A stretch of 64,000 nucleotides of DNA from the NCBI GenBank assembly GCA_035997375.1, contig DASYIS010000422.1, positions 1,380-65,379 of the forward strand, written 5' to 3'. Under the pieces are notes generated by a model, which saw nothing but the letters and a program-made list of their open reading frames with translations, made no database searches and had not been told where the DNA came from. Of this stretch, positions 32,505-57,693 are shown in pieces; within the stretch, counting starts at the first letter, position 1; every line of letters begins with the position of its first letter. The stretch comes from Chthoniobacteraceae bacterium (GTDB lineage Bacteria > Verrucomicrobiota > Verrucomicrobiia > Chthoniobacterales > Chthoniobacteraceae). Both the position numbers and the translations under genes were made by a program.

Positions 32505-33521
32505 TTACGCGGCCTCCTTTTTCTTTTTCTCCGCGGCGGGGTCGACGACGTCTTCTTGCGACGGATCGACGGCCGCTGGAGCGGCGCCGCCGGCGCCGGG
32601 CATGCCGGCGCGCCAGAGCTTGAGCGCCCATTCGGCTTTCATCGCCTTCGCGATTTGCTGGGCGTAGGCGAACTCGCGGAACCACTGCTTGACCATGTGG
32701 CGCCAGCCGCGGCCGCGGCGGGAGTTGACGGAGTCGAGCGTCTCGACGCCGCTGGCGAGCTGGGCGATCTCGGCGAGGGCGTCGCCGCGATCGATGCTCA
32801 TCTGGCCCGGGAGCTGGAACTCGACGTGGTTCATCCATTCGTCGTCGACGTCTTCGACCCAGGTCTCGACAGCTTCGGTCTCCGGATCGGCGGTGAGCGA
32901 CGCGGGGGTGGGCGGCGTGCAGACGCGCTTGAGCGGCCGGCGCAGTTTGCCGGTCTCGATGCGATGCTGCAGGTAGCGGGTGATCCAGGGGCTGCAGAGA
33001 TGGCCGATCTCCGAGTCGCCCATGATCTCGAAGAAATAGCCGGCCTTCTCGATAACGAAGCGCTGCCCGGCGCCGGACAGATCCGCGCAGGCCCAGAAGA
33101 AGTCGCTGCCGGCGCCGCCCAGGGAGGAGAGGCCGTCGCGCATGAGGACATCGCGGATAAACGGCTCGACGAGGGGCGAGGGCGACTCCGGCGTGATGAA
33201 CTTGGCGTCGCCGTTTTCGTCGGTGTAGATGATGGCGCCGCCGCCGGCGAGTTTCTCGTACTGCGCCTGCTCGTTCTTCGGCCCGTCGGGCGGCGGCGTG
33301 GCATCGCCGCCCATGCTCTGGGCGAGGCTGCGGAGCTTGGCCACGCCGCCCTGGCCGCCGGCCTTGACGAGCTTTTTGATGTGGAGACCGATCGAGGAAT
33401 TCTGCTTGGCCGTCTTGGTGACGATGCGGACCAGGTCGCGCGTGTCGCACATGGGGGCGATGGCTTGGGCGAAGTCGGAGGTGCCGCGGACCTGGTTTGC
33501 GCCGTCGGCGTGGTACCAGTG
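32505..33521 (-). CDS. Portal protein (lambda gpB family), C-terminal 338 codons; 5' part displaced by the nested element
   Basis: The frame is open from 33521: HWYHADGANQVRGTSDFAQAIAP-MCDTRDL... It is in frame with the track ORF 32505..33452 and continues the sequence that ends at 43573. Confidence 0.85.
   Translation of the reverse strand, partial: HWYHADGANQVRGTSDFAQAIAPMCDTRDLVRIVTKTAKQNSSIGLHIKKLVKAGGQGGVAKLRSLAQSMGGDATPPPDGPKNEQAQYEKLAGGGAIIYTDENGDAKFITPESPSPLVEPFIRDVLMRDGLSSLGGAGSDFFWACADLSGAGQRFVIEKAGYFFEIMGDSEIGHLCSPWITRYLQHRIETGKLRRPLKRVCTPPTPASLTADPETEAVETWVEDVDDEWMNHVEFQLPGQMSIDRGDALAEIAQLASGVETLDSVNSRRGRGWRHMVKQWFREFAYAQQIAKAMKAEWALKLWRAGMPGAGGAAPAAVDPSQEDVVDPAAEKKKKEAA
33514..33521. 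repeat. Left att core copy TACCAGTG
   Basis: Identical octamer at 43571-43578; the flanks diverge immediately on both sides. Confidence 0.8.
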
Positions 33522-35181: not shown

Positions 35182-35380
35182 AAAGTCCGTGTCCCGGAAG
35201 GCAGAAACCTTCTCGCGCCGAGAATCACCAAGGCGCTATCCAGGACACGGACTTGATTCTCTGTTTTCAATTGTTCGCCCCCGGCCGGTTGATTACTCCG
35301 CGAGGTTGAGACGTGCGCGGCCACCGTTTCTGCGATGCCCGAACTTTGAGAATAGACGATGCGCATCGGCGAAGGGAAGC

Positions 35381-35575
35381 CTACATTTCGCGCACCGTCA
35401 CCTTGGCGAGAGCGGCCTGCACGGCCTGCCAGCTATAGCGCGCGCATTTGCTCCCGAGTTTCACGACCGGAATCAGTCGGCGCGCCTGCATCTTTTTAAC
35501 CCCAGAGACGCTCAACTTGAGACGTTGGGCGAGTTCCTCAATGGTCAAAAATTCTTGGGTGGCGGCGGTGCTCAT
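35381..35575 (-). CDS. xis: Excisionase/MerR-type HTH DNA-binding protein (64 aa)
   Basis: FLTIEELAQRLKLSVSGVKKMQARRLIPVVKLG is the typical excisionase-family HTH. Located directly upstream of int. Confidence 0.75.
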   Translation of the reverse strand: MSTAATQEFLTIEELAQRLKLSVSGVKKMQARRLIPVVKLGSKCARYSWQAVQAALAKVTVREM

Positions 35576-35973
35576 CTAGCCGAGCTGGCGGTGTCAACGG
35601 GAGCCGGTGGGTACCGTGGGGAATTCAGAAAATCTCGCGTTGTGAGCAACGTGTGAATTGACCGGCAGTAGCCGGCGGGCGTAATGTCGCGTCGGCTGCG
35701 GCACTGTGCGTGCGGTGGCCCGCCATCTCAAACGTCGGACTTGTCACCCGTCGAAGGCGAACATGGGAGACGCGCGCCATCCGGCGCGTTGCCTCCCGGT
35801 CAGAGAAACAAAGGCCGTTCCCGATAGCCCTGGGGGTGACTCCCTGGGGTGAAAAACGCACAGTTTCGGGGGCGGCCTTTTTTGTTTCACACGATCGAGA
35901 ACCCAAAACCGCTCCCGTAAAAAACGAAAGCCCGTGTTGCAAGCACGGGCTCTCGAAAAGGGACTCAACTACG

Positions 35974-36465
35974 ATGAAGAACCGTAATCTGACGGTTGGG
36001 AATGTAATTCCCAGCCTCGGCACCGCAAGAGAAATATCGCTGCCCGCAACGCTGCCCGGAAGGCAGTCTGAGCGTCTGGAATCCGTTCCGGCCCGCGAGA
36101 AAGTCACCCTCAAAGCGCCGGGCGTTCCGCCTGGCAGCTCACCCATCCCCCCGCGCAAGGTTGTGCGGCTCGCGATGCCCGGCCGCCCTGTCGCCCCTGT
36201 CGCCATCCTCGCGGATCGCGAGGGGGTTGCCGAGGTTGGCGCGCCGGCCGCTCCCGGAACGTGCGAGCGCTGCGGGGAAACCGCTGCTGGCCTCCTCTGC
36301 CCGGCATGCACGAATGACGCGCCGCCGGCCGTGCGGCTCGCGTTTGGTCAAGCCGTTGGCATCGATGCGATGCGGGCGGCGGTCGAACGCGTGCGCGCGT
36401 ATGCGCGGCCCGCGGTCGTGCGGCTCACGATGCCCGGCCGGCCGGCGGAAGGGAGGGCAGCATGA
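35974..36465 (+). CDS. Hypothetical protein with a CxxC..CxxC zinc ribbon and a duplicated VVRL(A/T)MPGRP motif (start uncertain)
   Basis: CERCGETAAGLLCPAC. ATGA overlap with the next + strand ORF. The upstream part of track ORF 35710.. looks non-coding. Confidence 0.4.
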   Translation: MKNRNLTVGNVIPSLGTAREISLPATLPGRQSERLESVPAREKVTLKAPGVPPGSSPIPPRKVVRLAMPGRPVAPVAILADREGVAEVGAPAAPGTCERCGETAAGLLCPACTNDAPPAVRLAFGQAVGIDAMRAAVERVRAYARPAVVRLTMPGRPAEGRAA

Positions 36466-37079
36466 AAAAGAGCGAACGTTCGCCGTTCGAAGACGAGCTG
36501 CTCGATGACGAGTGGTGCGACAATCACCCTTGGCTCGAATACCGCTGCGATTCGGTCGCCGGCAGTCTCCTTTTGCTGCGTGGCCGCAAGATCGAAATCC
36601 GGTGGGTTTTCCAAATGGAAAACTTCAAGAATGAAGGCGACGATGAGCAGTACTTCAGAGGGCTCGCGTATGATCGGCTCGGCAGGTTCTACGCTGTCGT
36701 GGAGGAGGACTTGTGCACCCACCCGAAACGCCGGATTTGCGGTGTGAAGAAACTCAACGGAAAGCAGGCGCTCACGTGGTTCGCGCGCAACGCTTGCTGG
36801 GATGCGGCTTTCACGCGCGAGATGTGCCGCGCGATCGACAATCCGGGATTCGAGTTCGTGTCACTCGTGCCCGGCCGGCGCGCCAAGGGCCGCAAGGCCA
36901 CGAAGAAGGCGGAGGCGTTTCACGAGCAGCTCCACCTTGCGACGGCGCTGGTGGAGTGTGTGCGCAAGTTGGACGCGGACCCGACGCTCGCAAATCTCGG
37001 CGAGGCGTGCCGCTCGGCGAGCAAGGTCCACCAGGCGTTGCACGAACCGGCGAACTTCAAGCGCGCCGGCCAAGCGTAG
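36462..37079 (+). CDS. Hypothetical protein (205 aa), lower GC than its surroundings
   Basis: Clean ORF followed by a strong hairpin terminator. No family recognised. Confidence 0.6.
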   Translation: MKKSERSPFEDELLDDEWCDNHPWLEYRCDSVAGSLLLLRGRKIEIRWVFQMENFKNEGDDEQYFRGLAYDRLGRFYAVVEEDLCTHPKRRICGVKKLNGKQALTWFARNACWDAAFTREMCRAIDNPGFEFVSLVPGRRAKGRKATKKAEAFHEQLHLATALVECVRKLDADPTLANLGEACRSASKVHQALHEPANFKRAGQA

Positions 37080-37085
37080 GAAAAG

Positions 37086-37130
37086 AGCCGGCCGGCGCCA
37101 CCATGGCGCCGGCCGGCTGGTCCTTTCTGA
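37086..37130 (+). terminator. Rho-independent-type terminator (15-bp GC stem AGCCGGCCGGCGCCA/TGGCGCCGGCCGGCT, 3-nt loop, T-rich tail)
   Basis: Read directly from the sequence; lies 7 nt after the stop at 37079. Confidence 0.6.
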
Positions 37131-37306
37131 ATTCTGAATTTCCCCGCCTGCCGGCGTCATGCCGAGGCGAACGCCAGCGCGATGCGCCGGCTGCTCTTTG
37201 AAAACCGATAGATGCGCGCTCGAAAAACCGGGCTGCCCCTCCGACTGCGGAAAGCCGCGACGAGGGAGGCAGAGTAAATAGGGAGCGCATCGGACGCCGG
37301 GCGCAA

Positions 37307-39457
37307 CTATTGAAAGACGGCGGACCCTGTCACTTTCAGAACCGGCGGCGGATTGGTCAGGAGGTTCCGGTTTAGAGTTTCGATCGACGAAACGATCTTC
37401 TCGAGCTTTGCGGTCTGCCGCTTCGTTTCGCTCAAGAGCGGGCTGGCGCTTCCGGCCGCGAGGTTGCTCCCGCCAATCCGGCGGTCTGCATCGGTGGAAC
37501 CGCTTCGGCCTTTTTTGCCGTCGCCCTGCGCGGCTTCCGCCTTTGCGAACTCAGCGGCTTTCGCCTTAGCCGTGTCCGGATCGAGCCCGCCGAGTATCAG
37601 CTCCTTGAGCTTTGCGCGCTCTTTGCCCTCGATCTCCAAACGCTTCGCCTCGCCGGTGTCGCCCCGCACGCGTGCCCACATGATCTTGGTGTCACGCTCA
37701 ACGGATTCCTCGAGGTCTTTGCTCTTGGCGTCGCGCTCAACGCTCACATGGCCGACCGCCTTTTCCCGCGCAGCGGCCGGGCTGTCGCCGTTCTCTTCAT
37801 TGCGACGCGCGAGTAGGTGAATTTCCCTCTCGCGTTCGGCGGCGCTCTGGCCGGCGGCATCGCCCGCGGCCTTAGCGCCCAGGATGTTCATTTCGTCGGC
37901 TTGATCCGCCGCGTACTCGGCACGCTTCCGCTGCTGTTCAGTGCTTGCTTTTTCGAGTCTCAATAGCTCCTTTCGATTCTCGATCAGCTCCTGCAAGTGC
38001 GCGACCTCGGGGGCGGTAAGCCCGCCGGATTCGCCCCGCGCGCGATCCTTTGCAATAGTGGCGTCTAGCGCCTCGGTGGAATCAACGCCGGAGTCGGCGA
38101 GGATCTTCCGCTTTTTTGCCTCGGGATCTCGATCCTCGAAACTCGCTTTCTTTTTCTCGCGATCCAAGTCTTCTCCCGCTTTCTTCACTTCCTTTTGCAA
38201 GTCCAGAAGGCGCTTGGCGTCCTGCTCTGCTTCGAGGGCCGCGTCGCGTTTGGCCTTGCGGTCCGCCAGCGTTGCCGGCGAAAGACGCGCGAGGATTTTC
38301 TCGAACATTTCCAGCGACTTCGCCCATTGCCGGTACTTGTCCGCCAACTGCTCCACTTCATCCGGCTGGAAAAGTGCGTCCGCATTTTCCTCCGCATGCT
38401 TGAGCGCCTCCGCGACTTCCTCCGCTTGTTTTTCCAGCGCCGTCATGGCCTGCGCGCGCTCCTTTTCCGTGGCGACATTTTCGATCTGCTTCGCGGCGGC
38501 CCCGAGCCCGACCTGGCTCGCCTCGTCAGGTTCCGCCATCGCGGCTTCCTTGCGGCCGCTCGTTATGACGTAATCAGCGAGTCCAACGGCCGGGATGAAT
38601 CTCCGCAGCGCTGGCGGCAATTTGAACACGGCCGAAGCGAGGGAAAGCTTGGCCATGGCATCCGCCGCGATCGCGACGGATCGGCCAAAAGGCACGAGGT
38701 CCACTTTGGCGAGGTCCTGCACCATGGCCAGCGTCCCGCCCGTCACTTCGTGGCCGGTGAATCCAACGTAAAATTGATCCAGCTTCAGCGTCATGGCGCC
38801 GATCGCGTCTGACGCGGCGTCAAAAGCGGAAGCGTTTTTCTCCAGCTCGTTGCCCAAGCTCCCAACCTGTCCGCGCGCCTGCGAAAACGCTTCGGAATCG
38901 GAAAGCAGCGCGAGCATCTTCGCGCCGGATTTGCCAAACAAATCCATGGCGTAGCGCGCGCGGTCGGTCGGGTTGGCGACGCCCTTGAACGCGGCCTGCA
39001 AGGTGACGATTTGCTGAAGCGCCGTCATGGACTTCAGCGCTTCAAGTGAAACGCCGAGCTGATCGAAAACTTTCTTCGTCGGCTCCCCCTGCTCGTTGAG
39101 CCCCGTGAGGGCGCGCGAAAGAATGGCGAGCGTAGGGCCAACGCTATCCGCGCCCAAGCCGGCGTTTTTGAACGCCTGCCGCAGAACCACCAGGTCCGCG
39201 ATAGATTGGCCTGTATTGGCGGCGAGGTCCGTGAACGCGCCGCCCATCTCCAGCGCCGCCATCAAGTGTTCGGCCTGTCCCTTGATCAGCTCGAATCCCC
39301 TGGAGACCACTTCCCCGGCGACGGCGAACCCGGCAAAGCCTTGGGCGAATTTCGTGAACTTGTGCTCGGCCGTCTCGATGGAACGGCTGACGGAATTGAT
39401 GCCGGCGAGAAAATTCCCGTAGCCCAACTGCATCTCGACTTCGATTTTCTGTCCCAT
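37307..39457 (-). CDS. Second tail tape measure protein (716 aa), paralogue of 21897..24047
   Basis: Start at MGQKIEVEMQLGYGNFLAG (39457). Collinear with TMP1 (FAVAGEVV, AFKNAGLGADSVGPTLAILSRAL, DLFGKSGAKMLALL, ending SAVFQ). Identical length. Confidence 0.85.
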   Translation of the reverse strand: MGQKIEVEMQLGYGNFLAGINSVSRSIETAEHKFTKFAQGFAGFAVAGEVVSRGFELIKGQAEHLMAALEMGGAFTDLAANTGQSIADLVVLRQAFKNAGLGADSVGPTLAILSRALTGLNEQGEPTKKVFDQLGVSLEALKSMTALQQIVTLQAAFKGVANPTDRARYAMDLFGKSGAKMLALLSDSEAFSQARGQVGSLGNELEKNASAFDAASDAIGAMTLKLDQFYVGFTGHEVTGGTLAMVQDLAKVDLVPFGRSVAIAADAMAKLSLASAVFKLPPALRRFIPAVGLADYVITSGRKEAAMAEPDEASQVGLGAAAKQIENVATEKERAQAMTALEKQAEEVAEALKHAEENADALFQPDEVEQLADKYRQWAKSLEMFEKILARLSPATLADRKAKRDAALEAEQDAKRLLDLQKEVKKAGEDLDREKKKASFEDRDPEAKKRKILADSGVDSTEALDATIAKDRARGESGGLTAPEVAHLQELIENRKELLRLEKASTEQQRKRAEYAADQADEMNILGAKAAGDAAGQSAAEREREIHLLARRNEENGDSPAAAREKAVGHVSVERDAKSKDLEESVERDTKIMWARVRGDTGEAKRLEIEGKERAKLKELILGGLDPDTAKAKAAEFAKAEAAQGDGKKGRSGSTDADRRIGGSNLAAGSASPLLSETKRQTAKLEKIVSSIETLNRNLLTNPPPVLKVTGSAVFQ

Positions 39458-39530
39458 AATTTTTGGTGTTGGGCTACGGCCCGCCCTGTGGGGGCTGTCA
39501 ACTCCGGCGGCGGAGCCCCGCCACGGAACG

Positions 39531-39564
39531 AAAAACCCCGTCCCCTCACACCGAGGGGACGGGG
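39531..39564 (-). terminator. Hairpin terminator upstream of the element's tape measure gene (12-bp stem CCCCGTCCCCTC/GAGGGGACGGGG followed by TTTTT on the minus strand)
   Basis: Read directly from the sequence; located in the 156-nt gap between 39614 and 39457. Confidence 0.55.
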
Positions 39565-39613
39565 CTGGACTCGAAGGCCGGCGGCGCAACTCGCCGACAC
39601 CTTCGGCGGCGTG

Positions 39614-40357
39614 TCAATGAATCAGGCCGTCGTCGTCGTCAGTCCACGCGCGGAGAGCTTTGCGAAACTCCGGCCCCTTGTCGGGGAACTTGGCGAGCAA
39701 CTCCAGCGCCTTGGCCTGGCGGCGCTGGTCGTAGGTTGTGCGGGGCGCGGCCGGCGCGGCGATCGGGGCGATCGGGGCGAGCGCCATCGGCTTTTCCAAC
39801 AAGGCGTCTCCGAAGTTTAACCCGGCGATTATCAGCGGCGGCTGGACGTTGGCGGCGATCTGGCGGCCGGCAAGGTCCGCATCCGCGAGCCATTCCTCCA
39901 GAGACAAAAGTGAACCGCTCGGCTCGTGGACAATCCCGAGCCGCGCGGCCGTCTGCAGCTCCTGCGCGCGCAGGGTCTCGGCTTCCTTTCCGATGAGCTC
40001 GAGGATCTTCGCGCGGATCTCAGCGTGGATTGGTTTCGCTTCCCTGTCGATGGCCTGCAACTGCTCTTTGCAGAGCGCGCGCACGGCTTGGCCGCGCTCG
40101 TGGTGGAGTTGGTCGGGAATCACGGCGCCCTCCACGCGGGCCGCATTTTCCGGCGACGGGTCTTTGCGGAATTCCTCGCGGGCCGCGTCGAGTTCCACAT
40201 CCTTTTTTCGTGTGGCGGCCATCTGCCTTTGGAAGCCGTTGAAGCGTTCGGCGAGCTGGCGGAGCGCGGCGATCTGCGGGGGGCTGGCGACGCGGGCGAG
40301 GCGGCCGGCGATGAGGTGACGGAGGCTGGCTTTGGGGTGGGAGGCGCGGAAGTTCAT
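39614..40357 (-). CDS. Hypothetical protein (247 aa), coiled-coil-like
   Basis: Operon orientation inside the element. No family recognised. Confidence 0.65.
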   Translation of the reverse strand: MNFRASHPKASLRHLIAGRLARVASPPQIAALRQLAERFNGFQRQMAATRKKDVELDAAREEFRKDPSPENAARVEGAVIPDQLHHERGQAVRALCKEQLQAIDREAKPIHAEIRAKILELIGKEAETLRAQELQTAARLGIVHEPSGSLLSLEEWLADADLAGRQIAANVQPPLIIAGLNFGDALLEKPMALAPIAPIAAPAAPRTTYDQRRQAKALELLAKFPDKGPEFRKALRAWTDDDDGLIH

Positions 40358-40381
40358 TGGTGGGGGAATTCGGGAATTGGG

Positions 40382-40690
40382 CTACTCGCCCTTGGCGCGA
40401 TCGTAGGCGACGGCGGCTTCATCCAGACGGTTGCCGAGGCGGGCGTGCATTTCGTTTTTCTCGACCGGGCCAGCGGCCAAGTAGGATTCCATGACCGCGA
40501 CCAGGTCGGCCGGCGCGGTGGGTTCGGCTTGGTCGGCGGTGCCCTTTTCGCAATCGTAGGCGGCAGCGGCGGCATCGAGGCGCGGGCCTTCTCGATCGCG
40601 CATTTCGTTTTTTTCGACCGGGCCAGCGGCCAAGTAGGATTCCATGAGCGCCACAAGGGTGGCGTGCTCTGCGGTGGGGGCTTGTGTCAT
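40382..40690 (-). CDS. Small protein (102 aa) made of two tandem copies of the scaffold C-terminal module
   Basis: LVALMESYLAAGPVEKNEMRDREGPRLDAAAAAYD and LVAVMESYLAAGPVEKNEMHARLGNRLDEAAVAYD. ATG at 40690 with AAGGAGG upstream. Confidence 0.7.
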   Translation of the reverse strand: MTQAPTAEHATLVALMESYLAAGPVEKNEMRDREGPRLDAAAAAYDCEKGTADQAEPTAPADLVAVMESYLAAGPVEKNEMHARLGNRLDEAAVAYDRAKGE

Positions 40691-40713
40691 TGCCTCCTTG
40701 CCGGGGGTGTCAA

Positions 40714-41664
40714 TCACCAGCCCTCCAAGGCGCGATCGTAAGCGACGGCGGCTTCATCCAGTCGCTTGCCGTGGCGCTCCATCAGTGCATTTTTTTCGAG
40801 CGGGCCAGCCTTCAAGTAAGACTCCATGAGGGGGACCAGGTCATCTCCCCCCGCGCGGGAGAGGGTTTCGGGGGAGTCTTTCTCGGCGGTAATGCCATTG
40901 CGCGCCAAGCGCTCCAATTTGCCCTCCGCACGGCCTTTGGCGGCCGTGAGTGCGGTAATCGTTCCGTGAGCGGTGGCGAGGGCCGCGCGCGCGTCGGCGA
41001 GCTGGTTTTGAAAGTCCGTCGCTCTCGCCTGCCAATGCTGCCAAGAGGTCGTGGCGATCGTCTCGGGAGGTTTGGAGCGCGGAGCGTTTTGAAAGCTGGA
41101 AAGATCGAAGCTGTTCTTTGTCGTCACGCGATCGGTGATTTCATCGATGAACCCTTGGGCTTTCGCTTCCTCCGCGGTGAACCAAGTTTCGGCGTCCATC
41201 ATGGCGGCGATTTCCGCGGCCGGAATCCCGGTCTTGGCGACGTAGGCATTGACGAGCTGCGCCTTGATTTTGTCCATGACCTGCGCGGCCGTGCGCATTT
41301 GCTCCGATCCGCCCTGCGCGGCGCCGCTCGGATTGTGGATCATGAAAAGGCCGTTTTCCGCCATGCGGACGGGCTTTCCCACCATGGCGAGATAGCTCGC
41401 CATGCTCGCGGCCATGCCGTCGATTTGGACCGTCACGCCTGGCTTGTGGCGCAGAAGGGCGTTGTAGATCGCGTTCCCTTGAATGACCGACCCGCCCGGC
41501 GAATTGATGCGGAGATTGATCCGCTTTTCGCCATAGGTCTTGAGCGAGGCGAGCATCGCGATCGCGGTCTGAGCGAACGAACCGATTTCGGCGTAGATGA
41601 ACAGGTCGACGACGCCGGCGTTGTTTTCGATCGAGTACCAGGATGAGGGCGAGGGCGCGGGCAT
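40714..41664 (-). CDS. Element-encoded S49/ClpP-like head protease-scaffold (316 aa), paralogue of 30916..32046
   Basis: LRINSPGGSVIQGNAI..MAENGLFMIHNP..GKLERLARNGITAEKD..LVPLMESYLKAGPLEKNALMERHGKRLDEAAVAYD. The track start at 41685 is the TTG of a TTGACA motif. Confidence 0.85.
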   Translation of the reverse strand: MPAPSPSSWYSIENNAGVVDLFIYAEIGSFAQTAIAMLASLKTYGEKRINLRINSPGGSVIQGNAIYNALLRHKPGVTVQIDGMAASMASYLAMVGKPVRMAENGLFMIHNPSGAAQGGSEQMRTAAQVMDKIKAQLVNAYVAKTGIPAAEIAAMMDAETWFTAEEAKAQGFIDEITDRVTTKNSFDLSSFQNAPRSKPPETIATTSWQHWQARATDFQNQLADARAALATAHGTITALTAAKGRAEGKLERLARNGITAEKDSPETLSRAGGDDLVPLMESYLKAGPLEKNALMERHGKRLDEAAVAYDRALEGW

Positions 41665-41681
41665 GCGCATCTCCGCGCCTG

Positions 41682-42569
41682 TCAACCGCCGGTGCGGACA
41701 GGTATTATTGGCTGCTCGGGGTGCAGGGCGGCGTAAGCTTGGTCGATATAGGCTTTTCGCTCATCTTCGGGCAGGCGAAAGAAGCCGTCCTCATCCTCCT
41801 TCCCCGCGAGTTTCCACGCCGCGCTCTTCGTTCGTTCCACGTCGGCCCAGATGGCTTCGTCGTCGTGGTCGATCAGCGGGGGCCGTGCCGCTGGCTCTTC
41901 TTCGCCATAGATAGGCGGCACCCATCCCGGAATCATGGCCTGCGCCGTCGTTCGGCACTCTTTGTCGAAACCCCTGATAACTGCATCCGTTTCCGCCTCG
42001 AGGATTTCCTCGAGCTGGTCTTCATTGGACGCGCCGCTGAGCTTTCCGGGGAGACGGCCCACCATCGCTTTGACGCGAGCACGCAGGAAGCCGAACACGC
42101 GCGCGGAGAAGGTCTCAACTGCTACCACCTCGACGGTGCGGTCGTTGGCCTTGCGAATGGCCGGCGCGGCGATCTCCTCTTTGCGGAGCTGCTCTTTGAT
42201 GGCGAGCCATTCCTTGGAGAGGAGAAGACGCGTTTGAGCCAAGCTGCCATCGGTCTTTGAGGCTTCCCAATCCCGCCGCGCTTCATCCTCGGCGAGGCGC
42301 AAGGCGGCGAGCGGATCGGACGGGCGCGGAGCGGGCGCGGCCGTGCCGGCGGCCGGCGCGGGCGCGGGCGCGGCTGCTGCCGTCGGCGGCTGCTTGCGGC
42401 GGTTCTGCGCGTCCACGATCGCGGCCGTGCCGTTTGTGATTCGGCCATTGGCGGCGCGCCATTCTTCGGCCGCTTGAAGGGACGTGAGCGGCATGCCGCG
42501 TTTGACCAGGCGACCGACATTCTGTTGGGAGCAGCCCCATTCACGGGCCAGAGCATTTTGCGAAATCAT
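41682..42569 (-). CDS. Terminase small-subunit-like DNA-binding protein (295 aa)
   Basis: N-terminal HTH LAREWGCSQQNVGRLVKRGMPL, an Ala/Pro linker and a helical C-terminal part. Same architecture as the helper TerS and preceded by the shared cos-like sequence. Confidence 0.6.
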   Translation of the reverse strand: MISQNALAREWGCSQQNVGRLVKRGMPLTSLQAAEEWRAANGRITNGTAAIVDAQNRRKQPPTAAAAPAPAPAAGTAAPAPRPSDPLAALRLAEDEARRDWEASKTDGSLAQTRLLLSKEWLAIKEQLRKEEIAAPAIRKANDRTVEVVAVETFSARVFGFLRARVKAMVGRLPGKLSGASNEDQLEEILEAETDAVIRGFDKECRTTAQAMIPGWVPPIYGEEEPAARPPLIDHDDEAIWADVERTKSAAWKLAGKEDEDGFFRLPEDERKAYIDQAYAALHPEQPIIPVRTGG

Positions 42570-42634
42570 TGCGCCCCAGGCGCAGAGTCAACGGGGGGTA
42601 CAATGGGTACAACCTACAACCTAAGCTTTTTTGG

Positions 42635-42765
42635 GAATTCCGCGTGCGACAAGGCCGGGGGAGCTTGCAACCGCTCGCGGGGGGGGTGCCCCTAGGAGAC
42701 TCCTTAGCCGGGGGGGTGCCTAGGTGCGGCCATGCCGCGCGCAGGTGCCCCGTGGCGGCCTGGCT
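42635..42765. repeat. Copy A of a roughly 130-bp sequence shared with 48364-48500 (candidate cos/pac or late control region), flanked by GGTACAAC/GTTGTACC repeats
   Basis: GCGTGCGACAAGGCCGGGGG.GCTTGCAACCGCTCGC..GGGGGGTGCCC..AGGAGACTCCTTAGCCGGGGGG aligns between the two loci with few mismatches. Confidence 0.7.
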
Positions 42766-42886
42766 GGCCACAAGGCCGGGCTGTAATCTCTCTCCCTACA
42801 ACGCTTCGCGAGCATTGTACCGTTGTGGAATGCGCGCCAGCGTTGTACCCCCATGCGCGCCCGTTCTCGCCTTCTGGCTTGGCGTG

Positions 42887-43147
42887 CTACATCAGCTCGC
42901 GGAAGGCGAGGGCGAGCCGGTCGAGCTCGCCGGCTCTATCGATCAGAGCCGGCGTGAGCTCGTCCACTCCCAAGACAATCTGGCGTGTGATGTCCACGGC
43001 CTCACGGATCAAGCCGGCCTCGGTTGAAATGGTTTCGCGGTCGTCGCCTCTGCTTCGCTTGAACCGCAGGAAGCCGAGCGCCAGAGCGCCAGAGAACACG
43101 CAACGGCGTGAGGTTTCCAACACCACCTCTTCTTCTTCCGTGCTCAT
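42887..43147 (-). CDS. Small hypothetical protein (86 aa), paralogue of the next gene
   Basis: Start at MSTEEEEVV (43147). C-terminal VDELTPALIDRAGELDRLALAFRE resembles VKDLTPAMLHRAGELQTLAEEFRE. Confidence 0.55.
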   Translation of the reverse strand: MSTEEEEVVLETSRRCVFSGALALGFLRFKRSRGDDRETISTEAGLIREAVDITRQIVLGVDELTPALIDRAGELDRLALAFRELM

Positions 43148-43374
43148 CGGCCAACCTCCCGGAATTCTTCGGCGAGAGTTTGCAGCTCGCCGGCGCGGTG
43201 GAGCATGGCCGGCGTGAGGTCTTTGACCGCGATGATTTCCGAGCGCTCGGATTCGATCCAGGCGGCGGCGATCAGCGCGCGCGAGGCGGTGAGCTCGCGG
43301 AGTCTTTGAAGGCAGGCGCGGCCAGCGGCGAGCGTGTGCGCGCTGGAATTGAGGAGGCGGGTTTCGAGGTCCAT
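43144..43374 (-). CDS. Small hypothetical protein (76 aa), first gene inside the right end of the element
   Basis: AGGAGG plus TTGACA upstream; ATGA overlap with its paralogue. Confidence 0.55.
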   Translation of the reverse strand: MDLETRLLNSSAHTLAAGRACLQRLRELTASRALIAAAWIESERSEIIAVKDLTPAMLHRAGELQTLAEEFREVGR

Positions 43375-43417
43375 TTGCCTCCTGCCCTACTGTCAACGCT
43401 CCAACAGCCAAAACCGC

Positions 43418-43443
43418 AAAAACCGGGACCGTTCCGGTTTTTT
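43418..43443. terminator. A/T-flanked hairpin AAAAACCGG-N7-CCGGTTTTTT (bidirectional terminator-like) near the right end of the element; contains CCGTTCCGGTTTTT, also present at 33549-33562
   Basis: Read directly from the sequence. Confidence 0.5.
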
Positions 43444-43569
43444 GGTGTTCGCGTGGGTACTTCAGGGTCCGCGACGGGACTACCCGCCTCTTCCCGCCAA
43501 TCCGCTGGAAGCCTGATGAACACAGGCTTCCAGAGTAAATGGCCCCTCTTCCCGGTTCCCTACTTGCTA

Positions 43570-44211
43570 TTACCAGTGGATTACCTGGGCACGCGGGATG
43601 CGCGTGAAGGTGTTGTCGAGGCCGCGGACGTGGATCGCGACCATGCAGTGGTTGTTGTCGAGCTCGATACCGTCGACGATGAACGGGTTGCTCTCGGCGG
43701 ACGGCGGCGACATGACCTCCGAGGCGTCGAAAAGCTGGATGCACGGGGCGTCTTCCCAGCGCGGATTCGGTACGATGGCGGCGAGGAATTCGCCCTGCTT
43801 CACGCGGGCCTGGGGCGCGAAGGTCTGGATCTCGTAGCCGTTGCGCCGGCCGGCGAGGTCGCAACGATCGGGCGCGAGCATGTAGCACTCAACGTCGGCC
43901 TCGGCCTCGGCGTTCCAGGCTTCATCGTCGGTATTGAGCGCGAGATAGATCCCCTTCCCCACGACGTAACGGGCGATGCCGCGGACGGCTTCCTTGACGA
44001 TGCCGAAGTTCTGGAAGAGCCACTCGACGCGGAAGTTGATCTGCTGCCGCGTCCAGGACGGGAGATACTGCCGGGTGTCCGCGTTTGGAAAATAGAAGAT
44101 CGACTGGCGATCGGGCGTGTTGCTGACGGCCTCGGCGAAGGGGCCCCACGCGTTGACGAAGCCGAGCATGGCGCCGGCGGCGGCGCTTTTGAGCGTCTGA
44201 AGGAACTTCAT
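43570..44211 (-). CDS. Portal protein (lambda gpB family), N-terminal 213 codons, truncated by the nested element
   Basis: Follows the gpW-like gene as in lambda. Ends ..RIPRAQVIHW-TAA exactly at the core repeat. Normal portals are about 500-550 aa. Confidence 0.85.
   Translation of the reverse strand: MKFLQTLKSAAAGAMLGFVNAWGPFAEAVSNTPDRQSIFYFPNADTRQYLPSWTRQQINFRVEWLFQNFGIVKEAVRGIARYVVGKGIYLALNTDDEAWNAEAEADVECYMLAPDRCDLAGRRNGYEIQTFAPQARVKQGEFLAAIVPNPRWEDAPCIQLFDASEVMSPPSAESNPFIVDGIELDNNHCMVAIHVRGLDNTFTRIPRAQVIHW
43571..43578. repeat. Right att core copy TACCAGTG
   Basis: Identical to 33514-33521. It supplies the codons His-Trp and the TAA stop that truncates the portal N-fragment. Confidence 0.8.
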
Positions 44212-44215
44212 GGGA

Positions 44216-44494
44216 TCAGCAGGTGGCGCCGAGACTGGAGAAGTCGCTGTAGGTCAGGCCGACGGCGTCGCCGGCGCTGAGCCGGCGCGCCTGGTTGACC
44301 GCGGCGAGGAGCTCGGCGGCGTCCATGCGGCATTCCTGCTGGCCCGATTTGCCGTTTTGGCCGGCGAGGGTGGTGAAGGCGATCTGCCCGCCGCCGGCGA
44401 GGATCTTCGCCAGGCACTGCGCGCGGAGGTCGGTCAGATCGAGCAGCTCGTCGTCAGCGGCGTCGGCGAGGGCTTGGATGAAGGCGTCGGACAT
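44216..44494 (-). CDS. gpW-like head-tail joining protein candidate (92 aa)
   Basis: Small ORF between terL and portal, the lambda W position. The call is positional. Confidence 0.45.
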   Translation of the reverse strand: MSDAFIQALADAADDELLDLTDLRAQCLAKILAGGGQIAFTTLAGQNGKSGQQECRMDAAELLAAVNQARRLSAGDAVGLTYSDFSSLGATC

Positions 44495-44516
44495 GCCCCG
44501 GCGGCCGAGTCAACGG

Positions 44517-44783
44517 CTAGGCGAGGGCGAGCGCGCGCCGGCGGGCGGCCGCGTGGCGGTGCTCGAGCGGCGTGACCTGGCTCCAATAGCCGGGGGGCGG
44601 GGTGCGGATGAACTGGCGGTGGGGACCGGTGAGGCTGCAGCCGCCGCCGCGGGGACCGCTTTTGCGGCCGAAATCCGGCGGCGGCTGGAAGGACGGGAAT
44701 GGCGTGGAGTCGATTCCGAAGGCGGAGCTGCGTTGGCTCGCGAAGACGGCGGCGGCGAGGGCGATGAGGCGGAGGAGTTTCAT
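44517..44783 (-). CDS. Small secreted hypothetical protein (88 aa)
   Basis: Signal peptide MKLLRLIALAAAVFASQRSSA. Lies inside the packaging module, so a possible moron. Confidence 0.5.
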   Translation of the reverse strand: MKLLRLIALAAAVFASQRSSAFGIDSTPFPSFQPPPDFGRKSGPRGGGCSLTGPHRQFIRTPPPGYWSQVTPLEHRHAAARRRALALA

Positions 44784-44880
44784 ACGCCAGTTTCCGGAGT
44801 GTCAACGCGCGCACTCCGAGCGCCTGGAAAATGAGCCAGGCCGGTGATCTCCCGAAGGAAAGCCGGCCTGGTCATGGGGT

Positions 44881-45294
44881 ATGAACACCCTTGGAGGCGT
44901 GTCAATGAGGTGCTATCGATCGGCCGTGCATCATCTCACGGTAGTATTGACCGAAGGCGGTGAGATTCTACCAATCACGGTGATGGTGAGATTATACCAA
45001 TCACCGCCCCCGCAAACCGCCTCGCTGATTACCAAAGAGCTGGGCCTCGGGTGCGCGCATTGCGGAGGCGACATTGGAGAAGTCGGCTACACAAAAGACG
45101 GCCGACCGATTGAATGGATCTGCTGCTCCCCGCTGTGTTGCCTGAAATTCGACGAGCGGAATCTGACGATGGCGATCTTCCGGAACCTGAAGGTGGTCTG
45201 GGGTAAGCTCGCTGCAGGAGCCGCCACGGGAATTCCGTCTGGCGGTACCGCGGCGGCGGGAGCGCGAGGGCGAACTCGAACTGGTCGATCATGA
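44881..45294 (+). CDS. Possible Cys-rich protein on the opposite strand (137 aa) in a lower-GC 0.5-kb gap
   Basis: CAHCG..WICCSPLCC. It overlaps two 20-nt direct repeats, so the region may instead be regulatory. Confidence 0.3.
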   Translation: MNTLGGVSMRCYRSAVHHLTVVLTEGGEILPITVMVRLYQSPPPQTASLITKELGLGCAHCGGDIGEVGYTKDGRPIEWICCSPLCCLKFDERNLTMAIFRNLKVVWGKLAAGAATGIPSGGTAAAGARGRTRTGRS

Positions 45295-47496
45295 GGGCGC
45301 CGCAGTGGTGAGCTTCCGCACTCTGTCGCGGAGCGTCTCGAGTTTGCCCTCCGCCTCCGCCTCCATTTGCGCGAGCCGCTTGACGCGCTCAGCGTCGAGG
45401 ATCGGCTCGACGTCGAGGCCCTGCACTTCCTGCTCTTTCCAGCAGTCGCCCTGGTGATTCTTTTTGCGGCGTGCGACCCACATGAAGCCGCCGCCTTTCT
45501 TGGGGACGGTGTGTTCGTCGCAGAGCTGCTCGATGAACTCGGGATCGATATTGGACGGCAGCCAGCGCATCAGCTTCCGGTCTTTGATGATGCGGCGGTA
45601 AACCGTCTGGCAGAAATAATCGCTCCAAAACCACGTGAGGGTGAGCCGCTTGTCGTCGACCTCGGAAAGATAGACCACGTTGCCGCGGCAGTGGCCGCGG
45701 CTGCCGCCTTTGGCCGGCGCGAAGATGTCGCGATTATCGCGGCAGAACTGGTAGACGTCCGCCTCGCTCTGCGCCTGGTCGCCGGAGTCGACCAGGCCGG
45801 TATAGACGCGCATCGGCCGCGCGACACCGGTGGCGGGATCGTGCCAGAGATACTCGTTGAAGCGCGCCGGCGCGGCCGCAGCGGTGCGGCCGCCGGCGTG
45901 CGCGGAGAGCGGGAGGATGCCGGCGAGCTCCTGAATCTGAGTCCAGGCGACGGCGCTCCCATAATCGACCAGGACGCCGACGGTGGGCCAGCCGGGGAGA
46001 TCCCACGCGATGCCCCAGGCGAAGATGTTCCACCAGAACGGGGCCTCGCCGCCCTGCTTCTGGACGTCGACGGCCATGGTGAGCACGAATGGTTCGAAGC
46101 CGCCGGCCTTTGGCCCACTCGGGATGGTGCCGAGCAGGTACCGCGGCGAGGCATCGCGCAGGCGCTCGACGTCGGAGGCGTCGACTTCGGTGGCGACGCT
46201 CTTGAACTCGAGGCCGAAGTAATTGTTGTACAGATCGTGCATCGCGCCCGGGTCGCCCATGGCGAGCAGGTAGCGCTTGCTGATGCTGCCCCAGCGCTCG
46301 AAAGGGCTGTAGGCGGCCCACCAATGCGCGGAGACGTGAGAGCGGGAGGCCTTCGGGTTGGTGGCCATCCAGCGGAAGCGGCGGAGCATCCAATTCAACG
46401 AGGTCTGTTCGATGCGGCAGCCGTTGACGCACTGGTACCAGGTCTCTGTCTCCGCGAGATCGGAGTCCCATCCGACCTCGACGGTCTCGGGCTTGCCGTC
46501 CTCGCCGACGCGGGTCTCGGTGATGCGGGCGCCGCCGAATTGGAAAGAGCCGGTCTTGGCCAGGCGGAACTCGCCCGCCGGCAACGGCGTGAGATCTTCG
46601 GCGAACGGGACCTTCTCTTCACCGGGAAAGAAAGTGAGCGGCTGCCAGCCGGCGAGGGTGGGATCGTGCCCGGCCGGCGACCAGCCAGGCGTCGGGACCT
46701 CAGGTGGCGTGAAGGTGTGGCGCGGCCCGCGGGGTGTGGCGCGATGTTTCGCGGTGCAATGAGGGCACGGGAGGTAACACTGATGGCGGCTGCCCTTTTG
46801 ATGACGAACCGTGACGGCGCCGAATTCATCGGTCGGCGTGCTATTCTCGAAAACCTTGCTGGTCCGCGGGAAGAGTTTGACGCGGGCCTCGGCGAGCTGG
46901 TGCGCCGGCGCCTCGCCTTTCGTGGTGTGATGGATCTTGCCGGACTCGTTGATGAAGACCCACTCGGCGTTGAAGCCGGCGAGCTCGTTCGGCGATCCGG
47001 CGCCGGCCATCTTGAGGAACGCGCCGCCTTTGAAGAAACACTGCGCGGCCGTCCAATGCTCCTTGGTGCGGATCGCCTGCTCGGCGACGGGAAGGCAGGC
47101 GAGCAGGAAAGGCTCGAGCTCGCGGCGGAAGAGCTGCCGTGCGCTGGCGCGCGAGGGATCGACCCAGAGCACCGGGCCCGGCGCCTCGGCGATCTTGTAG
47201 AGCATCAACGCGAAGCAGAGGAGCGTGCCACCGGTGCGCGCGGACTTTTTCAGGGTGAAGGTCCGGACGTGCTTTTGCATCGCGAGATCCATGAGGCCTT
47301 CCATGGGCGGGACGCGCGAGGTGTCGAGCGGGCCGGGCTCGGTCGCGGCGGCGACGGCCGGGATGACGACGTGGCGATTGACCCAGACGCACGGCCGCAA
47401 TTTGGCGGGGATGCGGAAGGCGATGCCGGCGGCCGTGGCCATGATGCGCATCGTCTTGCGGACGGTGCGCTGCGCGTTGACGAGCTGCTGGATCAT
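45289..47496 (-). CDS. terL: Terminase large subunit, GpA family (735 aa)
   Basis: KKSARTGGT (Walker A-like), CYLPCPHC zinc motif, size and position upstream of W and portal as in lambda gpA. Confidence 0.9.
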   Translation of the reverse strand: MIQQLVNAQRTVRKTMRIMATAAGIAFRIPAKLRPCVWVNRHVVIPAVAAATEPGPLDTSRVPPMEGLMDLAMQKHVRTFTLKKSARTGGTLLCFALMLYKIAEAPGPVLWVDPSRASARQLFRRELEPFLLACLPVAEQAIRTKEHWTAAQCFFKGGAFLKMAGAGSPNELAGFNAEWVFINESGKIHHTTKGEAPAHQLAEARVKLFPRTSKVFENSTPTDEFGAVTVRHQKGSRHQCYLPCPHCTAKHRATPRGPRHTFTPPEVPTPGWSPAGHDPTLAGWQPLTFFPGEEKVPFAEDLTPLPAGEFRLAKTGSFQFGGARITETRVGEDGKPETVEVGWDSDLAETETWYQCVNGCRIEQTSLNWMLRRFRWMATNPKASRSHVSAHWWAAYSPFERWGSISKRYLLAMGDPGAMHDLYNNYFGLEFKSVATEVDASDVERLRDASPRYLLGTIPSGPKAGGFEPFVLTMAVDVQKQGGEAPFWWNIFAWGIAWDLPGWPTVGVLVDYGSAVAWTQIQELAGILPLSAHAGGRTAAAAPARFNEYLWHDPATGVARPMRVYTGLVDSGDQAQSEADVYQFCRDNRDIFAPAKGGSRGHCRGNVVYLSEVDDKRLTLTWFWSDYFCQTVYRRIIKDRKLMRWLPSNIDPEFIEQLCDEHTVPKKGGGFMWVARRKKNHQGDCWKEQEVQGLDVEPILDAERVKRLAQMEAEAEGKLETLRDRVRKLTTAAPS

Positions 47497-48323
47497 GGCT
47501 CGTCGTCGAGGGGCGGCGGCGGCGGCGTGGGCGAGTCGTCAGCCGGATCAGCCGGGCGCTGGGGGAGCTCTTCGCCCTCGAGGGCGGCGAAGATGAGATC
47601 GACGAGGGTGCGCAGCAGGACCTCGGCTTCGCGCTCGAGGATTTGCTCGATCTCGTCGCGATCGATGATGCCCTCGAGCTTGGCGGCCGCGCGCGGGGGG
47701 AGATTGTTGATCGCGGCGCGCAGGGCGTTGAAGGTCTGGGCGATATCGGCTTCCGCCTCAGAGCGATCGATGGTGAGGCGGTTTTGCTTCCGGATGTCCG
47801 GGGCGTCTTTCTCGAGCTTGCGCAGGGCCTCGACCACGCCCATCCATTCCTTGAAGCGGTTTTGAAGGTGCAGGGTGCTGCTGCGCGATCGGATGGCAGC
47901 GAAGTATGCGGCCGCGCGCTCGCGTTCGGCCTTCTGCAGGCGTTCAATGGCGGCGAGTACTCCGACGCCTTCGAAGAAGGTTTCATCGAGCGCGATGAGG
48001 TGCGGCTCGACGGGATCGCCGTCCCAGGTGCGCAAGCCGGCGGCGGAGGTCCTGGCGTCGTCGAAGGCGGGGCGCTCGGTGCGAGGGGGATCTGCAGGCG
48101 TGCCGGCGATGTTGCGCGTGGCTTCTTCAACCTGGGCGGAATCGAGATCCTCGGCGGGCTTGCGACCGCGCGGGGAAAAATGCTCCCCCATGGCATCGGG
48201 ATCATCGAGCGGCTTCCCCGCGGCCGCCCACCGTTTGATCGTGCGGAGGCTTTTCCCGTAGATCTTCGCGTAGTGCGCGAGCCCGTGGTGGTATTTTTTC
48301 GGCGGCTTTGGATCTCGGGGCAC
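47493..48323 (-). CDS. terS: Terminase small subunit candidate (276 aa)
   Basis: ATGA overlap with terL. N-terminal HTH LAHYAKIYGKSLRTIKRWAAAGKPLDDPDAM. Acidic C-terminus. By my reading of the printed sequence the GTG start falls at 48324 rather than the ORF-track 48323, and the two readings do not reconcile; the track coordinates are used here. Confidence 0.65.
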   Translation of the reverse strand: MPRDPKPPKKYHHGLAHYAKIYGKSLRTIKRWAAAGKPLDDPDAMGEHFSPRGRKPAEDLDSAQVEEATRNIAGTPADPPRTERPAFDDARTSAAGLRTWDGDPVEPHLIALDETFFEGVGVLAAIERLQKAERERAAAYFAAIRSRSSTLHLQNRFKEWMGVVEALRKLEKDAPDIRKQNRLTIDRSEAEADIAQTFNALRAAINNLPPRAAAKLEGIIDRDEIEQILEREAEVLLRTLVDLIFAALEGEELPQRPADPADDSPTPPPPPLDDEP

Positions 48324-48363
48324 GCCCGGTGGCCGGTGTCAAAAGTGCCAGGTGCCAAATCCA

Positions 48364-48500
48364 ATTCCGCGAATGCCGCGTGCGACAAGGCCGGGGGGGC
48401 TTGCAACCGCTCGCCTGGGGGGGGTGCCCAGGAGACTCCTTAGCCGGGGGGTGTACGCAGGCGCGGCAACGCGCGCGTAGGAGCCCCGTGGCGCGCCGTT
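48364..48500. repeat. Copy B of the shared roughly 130-bp cos-like sequence, flanked by GTGCCA/TTGGCAC repeats
   Basis: See copy A. Located immediately upstream of the helper terS. Confidence 0.7.
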
Positions 48501-49081
48501 CCAGCCGGCGCGCAATCCCCTACCCCTCCATTCTTGGCACCTACACCGGACTGTAAGGCTGAATTGTCACCGTACACATCGCGCTCGAGAAATTCACGCA
48601 GTTGCGCGAGGTCGTGCCTCGCCTCTTCCTTGTTGAGCTCCGCATGGCCCAGCTCCACCTGACGCTTGTACTTGCTGAGCTCAGTCGCCAGGCGCAGGTG
48701 ATGCCCCAGCGGCCGGATCGGCGCATCACCCTTGATCACCGGCCGCACCTTCGCCGGCACGTACCCTTGGTGGAACTTCCGCACCGACTTCTCCGACAAT
48801 TCCTCCACCTTGTTCACAAGCGGATTGGCCGTCGCCAACTCCAGGCACAGCGCGGCATTGCCGAACCCCGCGGCCAGATTCTCTTTCAGCCACAGCTCGA
48901 AATGCGGCGCACCGACGCTCGCTTTGATCGCGCGCAGCGTCTTCCCGATCTCCCAGGCGCGCGCCAGCGAGCGCGCAATCCACGCGCGCGCGTGGCGCCT
49001 CGCCTGCCTCTCCTGGCTCCCGAGCCTCAGCAGCTCTGCCTTTAAGCCTGGTACGTCTTGGCGAGTTGTGCTCTTCGACAT
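48440..49081 (-). CDS. Hypothetical protein (213 aa)
   Basis: Start chosen at MSKSTTRQD. The C-terminal tail runs into the cos-like repeat and may not be genuine. Confidence 0.5.
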   Translation of the reverse strand: MSKSTTRQDVPGLKAELLRLGSQERQARRHARAWIARSLARAWEIGKTLRAIKASVGAPHFELWLKENLAAGFGNAALCLELATANPLVNKVEELSEKSVRKFHQGYVPAKVRPVIKGDAPIRPLGHHLRLATELSKYKRQVELGHAELNKEEARHDLAQLREFLERDVYGDNSALQSGVGAKNGGVGDCAPAGTARHGAPTRALPRLRTPPG

Positions 49082-56097: not shown

Positions 56098-56418
56098 CTA
56101 GGCTGCCACCCCCTTTCGTTTCCCGGCGTCGGGAAAGAAATGCTGCGCGGCCTCGACCAGGATCGGGTCGCGGGCGAAGAGCAAGCGCGCGCGCAGCTTC
56201 CGCAGCGCCCGCTGCTCGATGAGCATGATGGCGGTGTGCGTGCAGCCGGCCCAGGCCGCAATCTCCTCCTGCGTGTACCGCACGCCCGGCAGCGCGACCG
56301 CGTGCAGGCACGCGATCCCAAGATCGACCCGCGCCGACTTCTCCGGGCCTTGCGGAGGCACGCTCCAGTCGCGGCATTCGTGCCGGCCCTGGCGGCACTT
56401 CAGGGAGGCGGCTTTCAA
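56098..56418 (-). CDS. Sigma-70 region-4-like HTH protein (106 aa)
   Basis: YTQEEIAAWAGCTHTAIMLIEQRALRKLR resembles sigma region 4.2. Confidence 0.55.
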   Translation of the reverse strand: MKAASLKCRQGRHECRDWSVPPQGPEKSARVDLGIACLHAVALPGVRYTQEEIAAWAGCTHTAIMLIEQRALRKLRARLLFARDPILVEAAQHFFPDAGKRKGVAA

Positions 56419-57398: not shown

Positions 57399-57423
57399 GC
57401 GCCTTCCTGGGCGCCGGTGTTAG

Positions 57424-57690: not shown

Positions 57691-57693
57691 AAA

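Follow-up and report, generated by a model that had tools for sequence, protein, structure and literature searches.

Why should two genes for the small subunit of a phage terminase (terS), lying in the same stretch of bacterial DNA, be preceded by nearly the same segment, and why do the short repeats beside the two copies differ? We met this question in a 64,000-nt stretch from a Chthoniobacteraceae bacterium (assembly GCA_035997375.1, contig DASYIS010000422.1, positions 1,380–65,379), which we call the window. One of the two terS genes belongs to a prophage, the helper, and the other to a 10,057-bp satellite element inside the helper's portal gene. From the comparisons below, we consider it probable that the two copies are cohesive-end (cos) packaging sites with a common cleavage core, and that each core is flanked by private, cosB-like sites for its own TerS protein.

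The shared segment

In the satellite and terminase part of the window, every gene reads on the minus strand, as judged from third-codon-position GC content (GC3) and open reading frames (ORFs), so upstream means toward higher coordinates. An earlier note on this DNA had described a sequence of about 130 bp upstream of both terS genes. Its position before terS was right and its orientation needed to be corrected. Copy A (42635–42757, minus strand) lies before the satellite terS, in a non-coding gap of 317 nt, and no gene is called over it in L017, a contig identical to the window. Copy B (48371–48493, minus strand) stands before the helper terS. Its upstream part, 48440–48493, overlaps the 3' end of the helper gene that lies upstream, which has a weak DUF3102 match in some relatives, and the remainder is intergenic.

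The near-identity that had been claimed is real: with blastn, the two copies are 87.3% identical over 126 nt (E 3e-35). A repeat search divides them into sub-blocks, with 42635–42715 and 48371–48451 being 90% identical over 81 nt, and 42736–42757 and 48472–48493 being 91% identical. The central 18-mer CCGGCTAAGGAGTCTCCT occurs exactly 2 times in the 64 kb, when 0.03 occurrences are expected. This is the highest DNA conservation between satellite and helper, as the homologous protease and tape-measure-like genes are only 64–70% identical (blastn). Copy A retains a non-coding remnant of the last ~20 codons of the helper's upstream gene, so we conclude that the segment was captured from a helper-like phage.

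Conservation of the core in related phages

We searched for relatives of the helper with homologs of its large terminase subunit (TerL) and found them in L001–L007, L022 and L024, which are Chthoniobacter- or Spartobacteria-type Verrucomicrobia contigs. Their gene order is terS-terL-gpW-portal (520–577 aa)-protease-scaffold-major capsid protein (MCP). The motif in the central ~80 nt of the shared segment recurs upstream of the terS genes of about 12 related verrucomicrobial phages with GpA terminases (the loci with the core motif are L001, L002, L004–L007, L013, L014, L016 and L022–L024). The position of the core, ahead of the small-terminase gene of a phage with a GpA-family TerL, is that of a lambda-type cos site, as the earlier note had suggested. 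Scans with degenerate core patterns found only a handful of loci.

An alignment of 11 core sequences has invariant blocks at fixed spacing. The blocks are CCCCC(C)GGnTA(A/G)GG(A/G)GTCTCCT, G(T/A)GCGGTT and T(T/G)(T/G)TCGCACG, which are in all of the related phages examined, and the spacing is GTCTCC-19/20-GCGGTT-19-TCGCACG. In copy A the core is at 42640–42715 (minus strand), with the C-run and dyad CCCCCCGGCTAAGGAGTCTCCT at 42694–42715, GCGAGCGGTTGCAAGC at 42663–42678 and CCCCCGGCCTTGTCGCACGCGG at 42640–42661. In copy B it is at 48376–48451 (minus strand), with the equivalent blocks at 48430–48451, 48399–48414 and 48376–48397. The distance from the core end to terS is 45–65 nt in both copies. 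The center of the core is an imperfect dyad, CTAAGGAG-T-CTCCTAG, in which the outer pair switches between GC and CG. The symmetry is kept with an altered sequence in relatives, for example as GAGACCCC-N8-GGGGTCTC in L002 and L004.

The core of copy A is 90% identical to that of its own helper and 53–73% identical to those of other family members, and it has three derived substitutions in common with the helper. Every one of the 31 family-invariant columns that the helper keeps is also kept by the satellite, with a marginal result in the test for purifying selection (Fisher p = 0.07). As far as alignments can tell, this pattern of conservation looks like that of a protein-binding DNA site. We also looked for a terminator in the shared segment and rejected it, since terminator-like matches occurred only at chance level.

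Two loci have an additional gene of ~210–220 aa between core and terS (L001, 2598–2810; L007, 4407–5183). Another, L022, begins inside the core: its positions 1–30, from Logan contig SRR26786846_704, read GTTCTATCGCC...TTGTCGCACGC, and the start falls directly after the GCG of the invariant GCGGTT, 175 nt before terS. Such a start may reflect either a physical cos end or a break in the assembly. We tried contig ends as a proxy for cos ends and gave this up, as L022 was the one case.

Private repeats beside each copy

The similarity between copies A and B ends exactly after the core, where short repeats begin that are different at the two sites. Beside the satellite terS, 42598–42619 (minus strand) reads TTGTAG-g-TTGTAC-cca-TTGTAC, and beside the helper terS, 48336–48357 (minus strand) reads TGGCAC-c-TGGCAC-ttt-TGACAC. 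The layout is the same in both, with hexamers separated by 1 nt and then 3 nt, and the hexamer sequences differ. We regard these arrays as candidate cosB-like sites for the satellite and helper small terminases, TerS_A and TerS_B respectively. On the plus strand, the satellite repeats are GTACAA at 42598 and 42607 and CTACAA at 42614 and 42796, and the helper repeats are GTGCCA at 48345 and 48352 and GTGTCA at 48336.

There are further copies on the far side of the core. The satellite has a direct copy at 42796–42801 and inverted copies at 42815 (TTGTAC), 42823 (TTGTGG) and 42843 (TTGTAC), within 42796–42848. The helper has inverted hexamers at 48535 (TGGCAC) and 48565 (TGTCAC) on the plus strand, within 48535–48570, but these lie in the tail of the upstream gene and are weaker evidence. 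The earlier note had described two different repeat sets at these places, and they are there; its list for the helper had the right places and missed the third copy, GTGTCA at 48336. Of the 21 TTGTA[CG] sites in the 64 kb, six are within 250 bp around copy A, and TG[GA]CAC forms a triple cluster at 48336–48357 and nowhere else in the window. No other clusters like these two triplets occur in the 64 kb.

Relatives have the same arrangement with other repeats, namely TGATAC/TGACAC, TGTCAC/TGCCAC, GGTGATA or TGTCCGG x8. In L001, at least 8 copies of TGTCCGG follow the core in place of the three hexamers. The type of hexamer tracks the recognition helix of TerS: xTIKRW goes with TGNNAC, DERTVRRW (L001) with TGTCCGG and SQQNVGRLV (satellite) with TTGTAC. 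The earlier note had proposed to align homologous phages, and within the helper family this alignment gave the expected result of a conserved core with repeats that follow the TerS helix.

The two small terminases

TerS_A (295 aa; 41682–42569, minus strand) matches phrog_57 with an E-value of 4.6e-4. TerS_B (276 aa; 47493–48323, minus strand) matches it with 9e-9 and is 42–54% identical to the terS products of related phages. The TerS_B gene overlaps terL by 4 nt. This terL (45289–47496, minus strand) encodes a GpA (lambda) type TerL with Pfam matches to GpA_ATPase (1.5e-33) and GpA_nuclease (7.6e-21), and tblastn found no second TerL in the window.

The two TerS proteins are indeed different, as had been noted, and their homology is confined to the central part, with 39% identity over 83 aa (aa 119–201). 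An exhaustive HMMER search found ~57 remote relatives of TerS_A and no close homolog; 9 of the 10 relatives tested match phrog_57, "terminase small subunit". Proteins that are 45–52% identical to the helix-turn-helix (HTH) domain of TerS_A are just 14–22% identical to its central and C-terminal part. Conversely, the helper-type TerS set, TerS_B included, is 35–40% identical to the C-terminal part and 21–29% identical in the N-terminal part. Judged by these identities, TerS_A is a domain chimera, with an N-terminal HTH from another TerS subfamily and a central helical part of helper type. The AlphaFold2 (AF2) model of TerS_A has a confident three-helix N-terminal domain (HTH at aa 4–41), a disordered linker and four long helices (86–212) with a predicted local distance difference test score (pLDDT) of ~95.

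The satellite and its insertion in the portal gene

The earlier note had treated the DNA around copy A as a separate element, and we could define it as an integrase-bearing insertion of 10,057 bp (33522–43578, minus strand) that is co-oriented with the helper. It is bounded by an 8-bp direct repeat, the att core TACCAGTG (plus-strand sequence), at 33514–33521 and 43571–43578. The N-terminal portal fragment (43570–44211, minus strand) has aa 1–211 and a stop made by the junction, and it matches Pfam Phage_portal_2 (22–197/354). The C-terminal fragment is at 32505–33521 (minus strand). With the L001, L002 and L004 portals as tblastn queries, homolog residues 1–217 map to 44211..43573 and residues ~207/217 to 494–531 map to 33548/33521..32598. 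Deleting 33522–43578 gives a 549-aa portal that is colinear with its homologs across the junction, where ..VIHW and YHADGANQVRG.. meet; the restored junction sequence is ..ATCCACTGGTACCACGCC.. We had considered a frameshift or pseudogene of the portal, and also two tandem prophages, and both are ruled out by the fragments joining exactly across the 10,057-bp insertion.

From its upstream end, the satellite has a pair of small paralogous ORFs, then copy A and TerS_A, followed by a ClpP-type head protease, a protein of 247 aa, a 760-aa tape-measure-like paralog, an HTH_17 excisionase-like protein and a 535-aa tyrosine integrase. It carries paralogs of the helper's TerS, protease-scaffold and tape-measure-like protein. 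We found no homologs of TerL, portal or MCP in the satellite with the terminase, portal and capsid proteins of L001, L002 and L004 as tblastn queries. Since the satellite has no TerL homolog, it must use the TerL of the helper. We tried the 247-aa protein as a diverged capsid protein and rejected it, as it has no similarity to the helper MCP.

A model for redirected packaging

We propose that the core of ~80–125 nt, with its C-run, dyad, GCGGTT, TCGCACG and fixed spacings, is what the helper TerL needs in order to assemble and cut, and that it is cosN-like. The part of the segment common to copies A and B alone might be cosQ-like. The direct hexamers and the inverted copies on the far side would be cosB-like, each set being recognized by the N-terminal HTH of its own TerS, with TTGTAC/TTGTAG read by TerS_A and TGGCAC/TGACAC by TerS_B. 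Each TerS would then recruit TerL to DNA through its own hexamer array. The helper-type central and C-terminal part of TerS_A is presumably for oligomerization and contact with TerL. Because TerS_A has kept this part and has a foreign DNA-binding domain, our proposal is that it brings the helper TerL to satellite DNA only. The satellite would gain the helper's motor by keeping its core in step with that of the helper while swapping the repeats and the DNA-binding domain of TerS. Excision would restore the portal gene, and the 10-kb genome would be packaged.

If this is true, the specificity of lambda-type packaging is split, with a DNA core matched to the large subunit and repeats matched to the DNA-binding domain of the small subunit, and the parasite exploits the split by exchanging the repeat part only. 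As two cos sites and two TerS proteins would occur here as natural partners, the locus lends itself well to reciprocal swaps.

Weighing the model against alternatives

The cos model is coherent and is supported by the in silico tests available, which do not prove it. Several points weigh against it. The co-variation of repeats and TerS was tested within the helper family only, and there is one satellite sequence of this type in the data searched. The TerS fold has no match to a solved structure (Foldseek found nothing in the PDB and weak matches only in BFVD; a PDB sequence search gave nothing significant), and the phrog_57 match of TerS_A itself is weak. The start of L022 fits a physical end and speaks for the model, but every other contig, including the one that carries P0013, is continuous through the core, and this single end may be an assembly break; it is also ~25 nt from the dyad, and the position of a cut is thus not fixed. 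Finally, the shared segment is partly coding in the helper, and some of its conservation could be coding constraint; in several helpers the upstream gene terminates at the TAA/TAG in the first core block. However, this block is non-coding in the satellite, and in L024 the upstream gene stops 320 nt earlier, so coding constraint does not explain the conservation.

The main rival is a regulatory site of the late operon (a promoter, activator or antitermination site), through which the helper's late regulator would turn on the satellite's terS-protease operon, and the hexamers would be operators for an HTH regulator. We consider this unlikely as the explanation, although a packaging role and a regulatory role are compatible. 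The segment is at the boundary of early and late genes, where it directly precedes the first late gene in every relative, and conservation without RNA covariation suits any DNA that binds protein. One would also expect a late promoter or an activator site ahead of terS, and a satellite could equally well have such a site in common with its helper, which counts against our model too. Satellites such as P4 do share late-promoter logic with their helpers. However, neither copy has a sigma-70-like promoter that we could find, and the hexamer type follows the HTH of TerS, with TerS_A being a TerS with a swapped DNA-binding domain. The satellite lies co-oriented inside the helper's late operon and is therefore already transcribed from upstream. 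It also needs a cos somewhere, and there is no other helper-like DNA in it to serve as one.

Copy A could instead be functionless in the satellite, a scar left when helper and embedded element recently recombined or underwent gene conversion. The remnant of the upstream gene does mean that the segment was captured, there is the single satellite sequence, and the selection test was marginal. We nevertheless think a scar improbable, more so than the regulatory site: the patch stops exactly at the private hexamers and is embedded in a satellite-specific repeat array on both sides, no family-invariant column kept by the helper has been lost, and the adjacent homologous genes are much more diverged. 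Direct and inverted short repeats on either side of a conserved non-coding segment could also be the iterons of a replication origin, and neither a replication gene nor an origin was recognized in the satellite. We give this very little credence, because there is no AT-rich unwinding element (the core is rich in G/C runs), the position next to terS is constant in all relatives and far from their replication genes, and the repeats co-vary with TerS and not with an initiator. A structured RNA, either a leader or a non-coding RNA that controls terS, seems to us equally remote. The part common to copies A and B alone can form a hairpin, with a sequence that differs between the copies, and there is a small stem at the dyad with an outer pair that is GC in 7 and CG in 3. 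Against this, RNAalifold gave -8.55 kcal/mol with a covariation term of only -0.5, and the sole longer stem in the core alignment is disrupted (A-A) in both window copies. Single-sequence folds compared with shuffles had z-scores of -0.09 to +1.06 on both strands, and Rfam had no match at the gathering threshold nor at E <=1.

Comparison with known packaging systems

Lambda cos is organized as cosQ-cosN-cosB, with the 16-bp R sites R3, R2, R1 and R4. The sites described here are like it in being directly upstream of the small-terminase gene, in having a partially symmetric central element, in having short repeats up to terS with a further copy on the opposite side, and in having, in most relatives, an A-tract between core and repeats. 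They differ in that there is no sequence similarity and the repeats are 6-mers spaced 7–9 nt. P4 is a satellite of ~10–11 kb with a near-copy of the cos of its helper P2, and it relies on the helper's capsid, tail and terminase. Our satellite has its own TerS and private cosB-like repeats; P4 has neither, and it integrates in the chromosome rather than in its helper. The TerS(SP) of Staphylococcus aureus pathogenicity islands (SaPIs) and the TerS of Vibrio phage-inducible chromosomal island-like elements (PLEs) are encoded by the satellites, pair with the helper TerL and recognize satellite DNA only, in pac (headful) packaging. The satellite in the window also encodes its own TerS, but the terminase is lambda-type (GpA) and the cos-like core is common with the helper.

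The E. coli cos phage-inducible chromosomal islands (cos-PICIs), with EcCICFT073 as the example, retain cosN and cosQ and have a different cosB, which is read through Rpp (Fillol-Salom et al. 2019, PMC6739421). As in the cos-PICIs, packaging here would be redirected to satellite DNA using a GpA-type TerL of the helper. Unlike there, the specificity factor would be a full-length TerS homolog whose DNA-binding domain has been exchanged, and not Rpp heterodimerizing with the phage TerS. The host phylum is Verrucomicrobiota, and we identified no Rpp, although no search with an Rpp profile was made. In the helper-embedded PICI 11capE, a 258-bp segment at the position of lambda cos is 90% identical to the helper (Tommasini, Mageeney & Williams 2023, PMC10111431). 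Helper-embedded PICIs also have late genes captured from helpers, and the study noted a putative portal site, B:Phage_portal_2:21 (PMC10111431). Our satellite resembles these elements in its ~90% shared segment at the cos position and its helper-derived late genes. It differs in having the excisionase (Xis) and integrase (Int) downstream, its own TerS and an integrase with two C-terminal TerS-like HTH repeats, in being inserted at portal codon ~211, and in having hosts that are not Gammaproteobacteria.

The underlying logic is thus already known from E. coli cos-PICIs, from the TerS of SaPIs and PLEs and from helper-embedded PICIs. What is new here is the combination of a cos-type GpA terminase, a satellite-encoded TerS with a swapped DNA-binding domain and insertion in a portal gene; the host phylum is also new. 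We found no study of verrucomicrobial phage satellites in the literature we searched. If our reading is true, helper-embedded satellites, described so far in Gammaproteobacteria, extend to Verrucomicrobiota, and this suggests that insertion into head genes evolved more than once. There is also a caution for annotation, since a portal or capsid gene that is split in a prophage may be a sign of an embedded satellite and not of decay.

Gram-negative PICIs have four zones (int-AlpA, Bro, primase/replication and late). In our satellite, the downstream end holds Int and Xis, and we detected no primase or Bro domains with Pfam or PHROGs, nor an AlpA zone. As this four-zone organization is absent, we would not class the satellite as a PICI, taken strictly.

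Other features of the satellite

The integrase (33574–35181, minus strand) has a Pfam Phage_integrase match of 1.8e-11, and the 64-aa HTH_17 excisionase-like protein (35381–35575, minus strand) has an E-value of 5e-5, below the Pfam cut-off. Repeats of AAAAACCGG(A/T)AC are found near both ends of the satellite (43428–43441 and 33547–33575) and are likely arm-type sites of the integrase. Neither an excised nor a circular form was found; the satellite is integrated in both L017 and L018, whose sequences are identical to the window.

The two paralogous ORFs at the upstream end (42887–43374) run from 43374 to 43144 and from 43147 to 42887 and encode 76 and 86 aa. They have a common C-terminal motif, LTPAxxxRAGELxxLAxxFRE, and no family matches; they are candidates for interference or regulatory factors. 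Further downstream, at 40388–40866, three tandem 144-nt repeats, with 70–76% identity to the reference copy, extend over the 3' end of the satellite's ClpP-protease gene and the small ORF that follows it. A related sequence is in the scaffold-like C-terminal part of the helper protease (30945–31131), and the satellite region may be a scaffold variant that alters capsid size. The satellite's 760-aa tape-measure-like paralog (37307–39589) has 64.5% nucleotide identity over 2 kb with the helper's 716-aa protein (21897–24047), which is odd for a satellite that borrows tails.

The helper prophage

The helper prophage adjoins a tRNA-Asn gene. INPHARED had no DNA match, the identity of the helper TerL to cultured phages is at most 32%, and single-protein and whole-core pattern scans of IMG/VR and GTDB found nothing. 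The helper protease (30916–32046) is ClpP-type with a coiled-coil C-terminal extension, whereas the closest relatives by TerL and portal have S49 proteases, so the head module of the helper is mosaic. PHROG matches at 56415–60736 had raised the possibility of a second terminase. With Pfam, we identified the 706-aa protein there as a HerA-like ATPase and the 327-aa protein as an HTH protein of HTH_Tnp_1 type, and we assign both to the helper early region.

Related integrases and a second element

The satellite integrase (C-terminus at 33574–34000) and all of its long relatives (P0052, P0053, P0055, P0056 and P0059) end in a pair of tandem HTH domains that are like the TerS N-terminus. This C-terminal domain is homologous to the N-terminal HTH of helper-type TerS (YxKTxxEYAxxYxVxxxxIxxWIxxGxPLDD). 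An integrase with what appear from homology to be TerS-type DNA-binding domains is unusual; if the tentative lineage described below is real, it might point to a tie, evolutionary or functional, that joins the machineries of packaging recognition and integration.

One of these integrases, P0059, belongs to a second element of ~10 kb, in L021 (309–12299), which splits the major-capsid gene of a prophage. The other genes of this element encode an HTH_17 Xis, a DUF1441 small-terminase-like protein, its own 325-aa capsid protein and a 766-aa protein. Together, the two elements suggest a lineage of satellites embedded in head genes outside Proteobacteria. We hold it as a possibility, tentatively, that the satellite in the window is the founding example of independently evolved, non-proteobacterial helper-embedded satellites, to which the L021 element would also belong and which would hijack lambda-type terminases, with a domain-swapped TerS, a helper-matched cleavage core, replaced TerS repeats and integrases with two acquired TerS-type domains. 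In L021, the N-terminal (309–1778) and C-terminal (11742–12299) parts of the helper capsid match successive halves of the element's own capsid protein.

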